Below, piece by piece: positions 5,337 through 7,355 of a DNA stretch of 9,660 nt (position 1 is the stretch's first letter; the number at the start of each line of letters is the position of its first letter). Location of the stretch: the IMG/VR virus record IMGVR_UViG_2529292829_000015; one strand, written 5' to 3'. A program made the position numbers and the translations under genes. The notes beneath the pieces were generated by a model. It saw only the letters and a list, made by a program, of their open reading frames with translations. It was not told the DNA's origin and ran no database searches. This DNA comes from a virus. Taxonomy: Duplodnaviria > Heunggongvirae > Uroviricota > Caudoviricetes.

Positions 5337-7355
5337 TCATCCCCTTCTTAACGAAGCCATTTCAAGTATCATACACTCAGAATAAGAAACCCCATATACT
5401 CCATCTGAATATGTAACCAAACCATAATTAATGGCATCCAGTCCTTTTTTCTCAAACTCAGATATAATGTCTTGCGCTATCACACCAAAATGTATTTTAC
5501 TATCTACATTGTCGTTCCATTTGTATTGTTTGAACTCAACATTTCTCCATGCATCCAGAACTACATCTGGAATTTTTTCAATATTGCTTTTTTTGTTTCT
5601 GTCTGAAGTTTGAATCGTTCCATTTGCAGCATATACAACAGACCATCTATTAGATGATATTCCCAATGCCGCTGAACCATCTGTTCCTGGACGAACTGCT
5701 TCGTTATTGATGTTAAGCACTTCAATTCCATTCTGTTTTATGATAGTGCTTCCTGTGGAATTAATTACGCTATCAGAAATAAACCCGGTATTACCAAAAA
5801 CTTTGCTTTGCTCTCCATTAGCGTTAACGTTAGTAGAAGTGTGAGGGTGAATTACGTTTCCGATAACTGAATGGTAGTTACCAGTAACTAACTGAACCGC
5901 TTCTGATTGGGTAAATGCACTTCCTGATGGGTTTATAGCACAACCGTTTACGGTGATTCTGGATGCAGATTCTCCTTCAGAATAAATAGCAGCACCGCTA
6001 TTACCCTGTAGTGATGTTCCAGATATGTCAATGTCTGTGCAATTAACAAGATGAATTCCGTTGTTACCATTACCGAATAATCGCCCGCCTACTATTGATA
6101 TATTTGAGCATAAATTAGCAAATAAACCATGCCCAGCATCGTTAACGGACGATTGCGTTGATGTACGCCCCCCGCTTATCCATGTTCCGTGTATTGACCC
6201 TTCTGTGATAGATTCAAGTCGAATGCCTTGATTCCAGTTACTATCGATATCGCAATTGTTAATGCTTACCCACATACGTTGACTCGGGATTGTGAGTTGC
6301 ATATACAAACCATAATCTTGATTATTAATAATTTTGACGTTAGTTAGTACTGTTGAGGCAGAATCTATAAATCTACATCCACCTAAAGCGTTACCATTTA
6401 TCATGCAGTCTGTAAGTGAAATCCAGCTATTTACTAATCCTTCACGATTACTTATCGCCCATGCGCCAAACTCACCATTTCCACTGAAGTAACAATTATC
6501 TAAGTCAACAAGTTCTACGGAGTCCATATACACGCCGTTCTTGCAGTTGTTTACAAATACTCTCTGTGCATTTATGTAGCTAGCATTAATAATTTCCAGC
6601 CCGTTCATGGTTTTGTCATAGTCGTTAGCTAAAACAATATCTGTAACAGTGGCGTATGAAACTGCTCCAGTAGGGTATCCGGTGCCATGGATTGATATTA
6701 TTGGGGCGGTCATTCCGTCTGCTGCGTGTATCTGGCTACCATACCCTGTTCCGCGTAATGTTTGAAAACTTTTAATGTTAATACTTCCGCTAACCTTAAA
6801 ATCGCCTACAGGAACGAACACCTCGTTACTGGCTGCAAATGCTCGATTAAATGCATTTGTATAGTCAGGGTCTGTTTCTAAGTAGAAATCCAATACAGAC
6901 ACAATTTCCTTATTTTTATCGTGCTGTGTTCTTTTTGCTGAGTCAGGAAATGGCTGTTTGACACATACAAGATTATCTCCATCACCAACATCACCACTAG
7001 AAAGCCTTTGCTCTAACCGATCTGGGTCATACTTCAGCACATTTGGGAATTTGAACTGCTGTGCACCATACGCATCATAAACAGCCATAGAATGGCCTTG
7101 CTCAGTTACGAATTTGGCAATCTGTCCGTTATATACAGGGTAACCAGCGGCGTTAATGATGATTGGTTGCGAAACGGGAACATGAGAGCCGTCTTCGTTC
7201 TCTACATAAACCTGAATCTGGTTTTCTGGATTTACCGGGTCAGTGTCAATTTTACCGATATAAATTTTGCCATTGGCTACGGCTTTAAAAGAACGAGCCA
7301 TAGTGAAGAGTTGCGAAGGCATGCTTACCACAACATTTGCGGTGATATCTGACAT
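5337..7355 (-). CDS. P22-like phage tailspike: gp9-type head-binding N-terminal domain, beta-helix receptor-binding/depolymerase body, C-terminal S74-type intramolecular chaperone domain
   Basis: N-terminus [11 protein letters not shown]...[23 protein letters not shown]...NVLKYDPD closely parallels the P22 gp9 head-binding domain as I recall it. The central region has the repetitive N/G/S/T-rich pattern typical of right-handed beta-helices. The C-terminal ~89 aa ([12 protein letters not shown] ... [12 protein letters not shown]) match the autoproteolytic chaperone motif pattern (SD..K.NI, G.IAQ[DE]). Start set at ATG 7353-7355 with a GGAG RBS 7 nt upstream, giving 672 aa; the longer six-frame ORF to 7403 is rejected. 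Confidence 0.85.

Follow-up and report, generated by a model that had tools for sequence, protein, structure and literature searches.

The window, meaning the whole 9,660-nucleotide stretch that was analysed, is a segment of the E. coli chromosome containing a decayed prophage, and was found at 99.9-100% identity in three complete genomes (027_SK3, ABW_S38 and KFu015). Its features are as follows:

1-933, the chromosomal gene yfdC.
1009-1083, plus strand, tRNA-Arg(CCT), the argW attachment site (ARAGORN).
1245 (RefSeq start) to 2402, plus strand, the integrase gene intS (Pfam Phage_integrase, E=2e-38; RefSeq).
2556-2918, plus strand, gtrA (yfdG), Und-P-glucose flippase (PF04138, E=1.8e-13; "bactoprenol glucosyl transferase" in RefSeq).
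2915-3832, plus strand, gtrB (yfdH), bactoprenol glucosyltransferase (PF00535, E=3e-31; yfdH in RefSeq).
3829-5280, plus strand, a putative gtrC-type serotype-specific membrane glucosyltransferase (GC content about 33%).
5296-5332, no strand assigned, a 12-bp perfect inverted repeat read from the sequence, lying between the convergent gtrC and tailspike genes and likely to be a transcription terminator.
5337-7355, minus strand, the tailspike gene, encoding 672 amino acids.
7477-7737, plus strand and divergent from the tailspike gene, an Mnt/Arc-family repressor (PF11423 Repressor_Mnt and PF03869 Arc, E of about 3e-14 each; "Arc family DNA-binding protein" in RefSeq).
7755-8880, minus strand, the 3' half of a P22-type DNA-transfer (ejection) protein gene, covering only positions 332-651 of the 668 in the PHROG profile.
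9460-9660, plus strand, the torI excisionase gene at the right end of the remnant (RefSeq torI; phrog_66 excisionase).

In RefSeq, chromosomal dsdC follows directly after torI, and the whole element at argW is therefore only about 8.7 kb long. It contains int, gtrABC, the tailspike gene, mnt, half of the DNA-transfer gene, one small ORF between that fragment and torI, and torI itself, with no intact virion genes. The argW site also serves KplE1/CPS-53, Sf6, HK620 and Kapi1, in which int and xis mark the two ends of the element (10.1101/2021.04.09.439263), and the remnant matches this layout, with int at one end and torI at the other. The identification of gtrA and gtrB by Pfam bears out the initial annotation, made from the sequence alone, in placing the tailspike gene beside a gtr cassette. 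The third gene of the cassette belongs to no Pfam family, and its PHROG family (phrog_13688) is of unknown function; we infer that it is gtrC from its position after gtrAB, its membrane-protein character, its low GC content and the co-occurrence of its allele with the tailspike (vide infra).

Two starts are possible for the tailspike ORF, at 7403 and 7355, and its stop codon ends at 5337. The ATG at 7355 is supported as the probable start by a GGAG sequence 8 nt upstream, by the alignment of the MSDITANVV N-terminus from residue 1 with the Sf6, P22 and CUS-3 tailspikes, and by the RefSeq start, which is the same; the RefSeq product name is already "phage tailspike protein". The inverted repeat beyond the stop codon folds as RNA at -22.8 kcal/mol (z=-4.85 against shuffles), and a U-rich tract follows it on the tailspike strand.

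The domains of the tailspike, all on the minus strand, are as follows:

7017-7355, residues 1-113, head-binding (particle-attachment) domain (Pfam PF09008, E=1e-64, full profile 1-113 of 113).
6666-7016, residues 114-230, neck and N-terminal beta-helix cap with an 18-letter motif, 75-91% identical to the homologues P0002-P0004.
5796-6908, residues 150-520 approximately, right-handed parallel beta-helix body (Pfam Beta_helix, E=1e-9, and NosD; AF2; Foldseek).
5607-5795, residues 521-583, C-terminal stalk before the predicted cleavage site (alignments to CUS-3 residues 777-817 and to the stalk of endoNF in 3gw6).
5340-5606, residues 584-672, Peptidase_S74 intramolecular chaperone domain (PF13884, E=6e-14; 3gud and 3gw6 alignments).

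The Head_binding, Beta_helix (residues 252-382) and Peptidase_S74 (residues 584-638, 52.5 bits against a cut-off of 22) matches all exceed the curated Pfam cut-offs, as the initial annotation had anticipated. At the N-terminus, PDB matches to the P22 gp9 head-binding domain reach an E value of about 1e-48, with 71% identity in the Foldseek row for 2vky (the P22 head-binding domain). The first 100 or so residues are near-identical to Sf6 gp14 in the printed 7sg7 alignment, and residues 1-122 are 91% identical to CUS-3. By homology, then, the N-terminal 113 residues are identified as the adaptor by which tailspikes dock on the P22/Sf6-type tail hub. A switch away from P22 at about residue 115 had also been proposed. 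The P22 tailspike does match residues 1-114 only, but the Sf6 tailspike remains similar as far as about residue 223 (7sg7, E=7.5e-80; 2vbe, residues 109-223, E=9e-12), so that the mosaic junction is not a single sharp point. The neck and cap segment is common to tailspikes with many different adaptors, and many matches in a library of representative proteins are confined to residues 114-230, at 40-55% identity; this segment is likely to be a recombination joint.

Homology identifies the middle of the protein as a right-handed beta-helix; helices of this type bind surface polysaccharides and in most cases cleave them, and that of the tailspike is presumed to be the glycan-binding and depolymerase domain. 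Alongside the Pfam match, an AF2 model of a single chain (built on a 10-sequence alignment) has pLDDT values mostly of 80-95 over residues 150-520 or so, all of it beta-strand. When this model was compared with the PDB in Foldseek, the Sf6, P22 and HK620 spikes, CBA120 TSP3 and TSP2, and AlgE4 and AlgE6 epimerase modules were matched with a probability of 1.0. Identity of the body to these structures is at most 18%, with no close solved relative. The earlier claim of no relationship between the body and the P22 endorhamnosidase therefore stands for sequence and fails for fold class, which is the same. Confidence in the monomer model is low for the head-binding, stalk and chaperone parts, whose assignments are based on sequence homology; low confidence would be expected for a stalk that intertwines in a trimer. 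The stalk also has a weak End_tail_spike match (residues 524-583, E=0.0016), which falls below the cut-off.

The last 89 residues are recognisable by homology as an S74 intramolecular chaperone, and the two motifs on which the original proposal of such a module was based, SDRNKK (residues 584-589) and GVIAQDI (residues 621-627), are both present. In the alignment with the released chaperone of GA-1 gp12 (3gud, which starts SDERHK), Ser584 is matched to the initial serine of that chain, and Lys589 lies five residues beyond it, as in the endoNF dyad (3gw6), so that both residues are conserved. In an alignment of homologues, T583, D585 and K589 are nearly invariant. Ser584 and Lys589 are thus predicted to be the catalytic dyad, with cleavage directly before Ser584 splitting the 72.6-kDa chain into products of 62.4 kDa and 10.2 kDa.

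The body family is rare. Only five proteins matched the body at E<1e-30 in a library of 1.84 billion representatives; no relatives of it were found among IMG/VR viral contigs or GTDB species representatives, and no record in a phage collection covered at least 80% of the tailspike. A search with residues 113-672 returned one identical protein and the allele P0002, at 85% identity over this range and 88% when the full-length proteins are compared. P0002 likewise begins with the head-binding domain and finishes with S74, and its gene ends a P22-like late operon (coat, gp4, gp10, gp7, gp20 and gp16) with mnt adjoining. Codon comparison with P0002 gives a dS of 0.16 for the adaptor and 0.02 for the nearly identical chaperone, with synonymous divergence saturated over residues 231-480. 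Residues 396-480 are the most variable segment, with 59% protein identity to P0002 and about 60% to all homologues. The overall dN/dS of about 0.1 indicates purifying selection.

The other relatives (P0003, P0004 and P0005) are uncharacterised metagenomic spikes that resemble the tailspike through body, stalk and cleavage site (62-68% identity) and differ from it in their adaptors and in the type of their S74 domain. P0004 has a T7 tail-fibre N-terminus and Tail_spike_N, and its gene follows genes of the Gp13-Gp16 internal-core type on a 39.9-kb T7-like contig. P0003, whose adaptor is Tail_spike_N, is encoded on a siphovirus-like contig of 44.7 kb, where its gene comes after those for tail chaperones and large tail proteins. 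The S74 domain is present in all three; in the T7-like and siphovirus homologues it is a second sequence type, only 30% identical to that of the tailspike in the window, with the switch near the cleavage site. Since different adaptors are combined with a shared body, stalk and S74 domain, the moving unit is body plus stalk plus chaperone, joined to the adaptor of the recipient particle. A comparable relationship has been described for K1F and CUS-3, in which the same endosialidase is carried on a T7 adaptor and a P22 adaptor, respectively (PMC5380687).

The history of the remnant is clarified by E. coli strain 97.3 (O68:H12), in which the identical tailspike gene ends a complete-looking P22-like prophage of 38.7 kb. 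No element occupies argW in this strain; the cassette is found where the prophage adjoins ybhB/bio. The prophage has genes for lambda-type int/xis, recombination, immunity, replication, nin, lysis, terminase and portal, together with those for coat, gp4, gp10, needle, gp7 and gp20. Its DNA-transfer gene is an uninterrupted ORF of 767 codons, and the "pseudogene" label that RefSeq attaches to it was rejected on that ground. In the window, only the last 370 or so codons of this gene are retained, and identity with 97.3 ends at 8880. The truncation was settled by the PHROGs profile and the 97.3 ORF together; since a fragment ending at 8880 corresponds to an intact gene for 767 amino acids in 97.3, the window is, as judged from this comparison, a deletion derivative of a full P22-like prophage. 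A tblastn search with the L005 gp16/SLT protein matched neither the window nor L001, since both have a different allele. Between the window and the 97.3 cassette, only four nucleotides differ over the 6.3 kb from 2592 to 8880, whereas 32 differences fall within 2316-2591 (the 3' end of int and the int-gtrA spacer), a distribution consistent with a recombination joint close to where int gives way to gtrA.

The tailspike gene is present in four of 5,426 complete E. coli genomes, in four copies that are 100% identical, and the gtrC allele of the window occurs in exactly the same four, which strengthens the link between spike and gtr cassette. One of the carriers is typed O68:H12, and the wzx-to-GT4 segment of its O-antigen cluster, when used as a query, was found in only eight genomes, including all four carriers; the other four have this wzx/wzy cluster without the tailspike. 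Strains I4 and D53-1 are examples of O68 strains that lack the cassette. In both 97.3 and 027_SK3, the two carriers examined, rfbA and rfbC are adjacent and no IS element intervenes, and uninterrupted rfbA/rfbC is the published PCR criterion for O68 rather than O62 (PMC4384082), so both strains would be of O68 type. The chromosomal flanks of these two strains differ at three of 16,900 positions (99.98% identity). The four carriers are thus probably one clone, as judged from the two that were compared directly, and the association with O68 may reflect only one or two acquisition events. For the same reason, the argW and bio contexts were rejected as independent support for it. A temperate phage must adsorb to the strain that it lysogenises, which makes the O68 O-antigen of the host the most likely receptor and gtrABC its probable masking system. 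The receptor specificity was initially described as different from that of P22 and unknown; it is no longer wholly unknown, given that all carriers have an O68-type cluster, albeit apparently within one clone. In the O68 cluster there are genes for rhamnose and mannose pathways and for three glycosyltransferases, and because no uronic-acid pathway gene was seen inside it, hydrolysis is probably favoured over a lyase reaction. For a glucose side branch in the O68 repeat unit, the texts found in the literature cite Jiang et al. 2014 without giving the structure.

Taken together, these data make it probable that the product of the gene is the receptor-binding tailspike of a temperate E. coli phage of P22-like type, directed at O68, processed by S74 self-cleavage, paired with gtrABC and stranded in a prophage remnant. 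Three chains would associate through their C-terminal chaperone domains, and folding of the stalk and beta-helix would be nucleated in this way. Ser584, activated by Lys589, would cut the chain and free a 10-kDa fragment, and each subunit of the mature spike would then be about 62 kDa. The target would be the O68 O-antigen, probably cleaved by hydrolysis, and in the lysogen the adjacent gtrABC would glucosylate this O-antigen, with the result that sibling phages would no longer adsorb. P22, Shigella phages and CUS-3 (with neuO and the K1 capsule) are known examples of a spike paired in this way with a receptor-modifying system. A deletion with one end within the DNA-transfer gene and the other close to the gene for the excisionase removed every head and tail gene, and the spike can now be used only if particles come from another P22-like phage or such a phage recombines with the locus. 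The carrier genome of the window has a head-binding-domain gene at this one place only, so that no resident P22-like particle is available to use the spike. The earlier suggestion that the protein could attach to P22-like virions thus holds for the adaptor, but the 8.7-kb remnant and its own genome provide no such virion.

The loss of all virion genes and the single head-binding-domain gene in the carrier also suit a different account, in which the copy in the window is a relic without present function or expression, its intactness reflecting how recently the deletion took place. The identity of all four copies leaves no signal of selection within the remnant, and a sigma-70 promoter scan upstream of the tailspike gene gave fewer sites than shuffled sequence, none of them convincing. 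This could well be the case, at a likelihood slightly short of even, but it concerns the fate of the gene in one lineage rather than the identity of the protein. The reading frame, ribosome-binding site and terminator are all intact in the window, and the occurrence of the same cassette in a complete-looking prophage of a sister strain with an empty argW site indicates that it was recently part of a whole phage genome.

A more active role for the remnant is also conceivable, although we regard it as rather doubtful. The spike and gtrC would form an O68-specific depolymerase and modification pair, and the 8.7-kb argW remnant, excisable since int and torI are kept, would be a reservoir from which the cassette passes to incoming P22-like phages. 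This is favoured by the near-identical sister strain, in which argW is empty and a complete prophage at the bio locus, with an integrase of lambda type, contains the same cassette, and by the occurrence of the body, stalk and chaperone unit on T7-like and siphovirus adaptors as well.

The beta-helix of the tailspike might also only bind the glycan or remove a substituent, leaving the backbone uncleaved. No catalytic residues could be assigned in the beta-helix from the monomer model and the 10-sequence alignment (D331 and D377/D379 are acidic residues that the close homologues conserve), identity to characterised endoglycosidases is low, and the variable residues 396-480 could be a binding surface. 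However, the Pfam search detected no esterase domain in the tailspike, and the P22, Sf6 and HK620 spikes, which are among the fold matches, are characterised endoglycosidases; binding or substituent removal as the sole activity is accordingly considered improbable. More improbable still is a capsule or exopolysaccharide target (K antigen or colanic acid, by analogy with CUS-3 and the K1 capsule), for which the label of the best PHROG family ("tail spike protein with colanic acid degradation activity"), the combination of head-binding and S74 domains best known from a capsule depolymerase, and the alginate epimerases and lyases among the fold matches might be cited, but the shared head-binding domain contributes part of the PHROG score and perhaps much of it, the neighbouring gtrABC modifies the O-antigen where the neuO neighbour of CUS-3 modifies capsule, the gtrC allele co-varies perfectly with the spike among carriers that share an O-antigen cluster, and the colanic-acid locus may be disrupted in 027_SK3, which has IS1 directly upstream of galF where 97.3 has wcaM. 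The PHROG label itself was rejected as functional evidence, since SEN22, a phage record that bears it, matches residues 1-122 only.

Should the assignment of the tailspike to O68 be right, the protein would be a ready-made serogroup-specific binding or depolymerase reagent, for which the use of a prophage spike against O104:H4 (PMC3303846) is a model, and the set of spike alleles mapped to an O-serogroup, from which host range is predicted by sequence, would grow by one. The locus is also a clean case of a receptor-binding cassette moving across phage morphotypes and prophage contexts. Its practical value is modest, and the understanding of tailspikes or S74 chaperones is unchanged.

Among known systems, the closest parallel is the characterised CUS-3 endosialidase tailspike siaK1 (ABQ88383; Stummeyer et al. 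2006, PMID 16689790). CUS-3, a Lederbergvirus of E. coli RS218, likewise has Head_binding at residues 1-113 and a stalk with a C-terminal Peptidase_S74 domain (818-878; 33% identity over about 120 residues), and its spike gene likewise lies between mnt/ant and a receptor-modifying gene beside int. It differs in being a beta-propeller endosialidase of 981 amino acids, specific for the K1 capsule and neighboured by neuO, in contrast to the 672-residue beta-helix protein beside gtrABC. Describing the tailspike as chimeric therefore overstated its novelty: a modular build of this sort is the norm among P22-like tailspikes, and both the bracketing of a body by head-binding and S74 domains and the pairing of spike with receptor modifier have already been published for CUS-3. 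What is added here is the cassette mobility of the body-stalk-S74 unit, the rare body family, the probable link to O68, and the relation of the remnant to the 97.3 prophage.

Sf6 uses argW as its attachment site, as does KplE1 (10.1101/2021.04.09.439263). Its gp14 (7sg7, 2vbk) is the best PDB match to the tailspike, over residues 1-223, and shares the head-binding domain, neck, cap and beta-helix fold, but its endorhamnosidase body is only 16-18% identical in body-only fold alignments. Sf6 carries oac rather than gtrABC. P22 gp9 shares the head-binding domain and the position of its gene after ejection genes and the immI region, beside gtrABC (for P22 gtrABC, see the Kapi1 preprint), and its body is unrelated in sequence. 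A PDB sequence search gave no S74 match to the Sf6 or P22 tailspike chains; in the P22 spike, the auto-chaperone function is reported to reside in its own C-terminal trimeric domain (PMC3357383). The K1F endoNF and GA-1/phi29 gp12 proteins (3gw6, 3gud) belong to phages of other hosts and have other adaptors and catalytic bodies, but their S74 domains have a Ser-Lys dyad in register with that of the tailspike, with a stalk preceding it.

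When the cassette at argW is compared with the same cassette in the P22-like prophage at the bio locus of the near-identical sister strain 97.3 (O68:H12), 32 of the 36 differences fall within window positions 2316-2591, corresponding to 16981-17260 of the 97.3 locus L001. This stretch takes in the final 90 bp of the integrase gene intS, the spacer between int and gtrA, and the very start of gtrA; just four differences are spread over the remaining 6.3 kb of the cassette. In 97.3, intS is reduced to an 88-bp 3' fragment that adjoins ybhB. Taken together, the clustered differences and the intS fragment look like a scar left by the exchange of one integrase module for another. 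The argW site itself is unoccupied in 97.3 (L010 5070-5320), with dsdC, tRNA-Arg and yfdC, as against window positions 1009-9660. Both int and torI have been kept in the remnant in the window, which may still be excisable, or may never have been present in the 97.3 branch.

The S74 chaperone of the tailspike (window 5340-5606; columns ~940-1072 of A1, the alignment of tailspike homologues) occurs as two sequence types on otherwise homologous bodies. One is common to the window and a related allele, P0002, and the other, SDERLKSFEDTLECEKKAA, is found in P0003-P0005, homologues with other N-termini. In the alignment, one type gives way to the other right at the predicted cleavage serine. This points to the chaperone as an exchangeable sub-module in its own right.

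No Pfam family was found for the gene in the gtrC position (3829-5280), and its C-terminal 200 residues alone match phrog_13688, a family of unknown function (E=2e-55). Its GC content is ~33%, compared with ~47% in the flanks. This gene presumably encodes an uncharacterised type of serotype-specific transferase. A repeat lies between it and the tailspike gene:

Window 5296-5332, between the convergent gtrC and tailspike stops: 12-bp perfect inverted repeat (ATATGTGCGCAT ... ATGCGCACATAT)

The repeat has a fold energy of -22.8 kcal/mol (z=-4.85) and is followed on the tailspike strand by a U-rich tail; the hairpin was not picked up by the consensus scan. It is likely to be a terminator.

A 114-aa ORF (8992-9336), flanked by the truncated DNA-transfer gene on one side and torI on the other, matches phrog_1229, also of unknown function, over its full length (E=2e-51) and overlaps the 5' extension of an opposite-strand ORF (7755-9047). 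The RefSeq annotation of 97.3 has a pseudogene with a lytic-transglycosylase domain at L001 23436-24497 and leaves 22419-23435 blank. Because an uninterrupted 767-codon ORF covers L001 22419-24722 (- strand), the pseudogene label is probably an annotation artefact.

In 027_SK3, the genome of the window itself, the lambda attachment site (bio-ybhC, L008 26400-38100) is occupied by another lambdoid remnant, also decayed, which retains int/xis; trkG and a gene for a diguanylate cyclase are found there too. By annotated size, this int/xis pair is identical to that of the 97.3 P22-like prophage. In the same strain an IS1 element (L013 1-586) stands directly upstream of galF, the place of wcaM in 97.3; the cluster for colanic acid may be interrupted there, or deleted.
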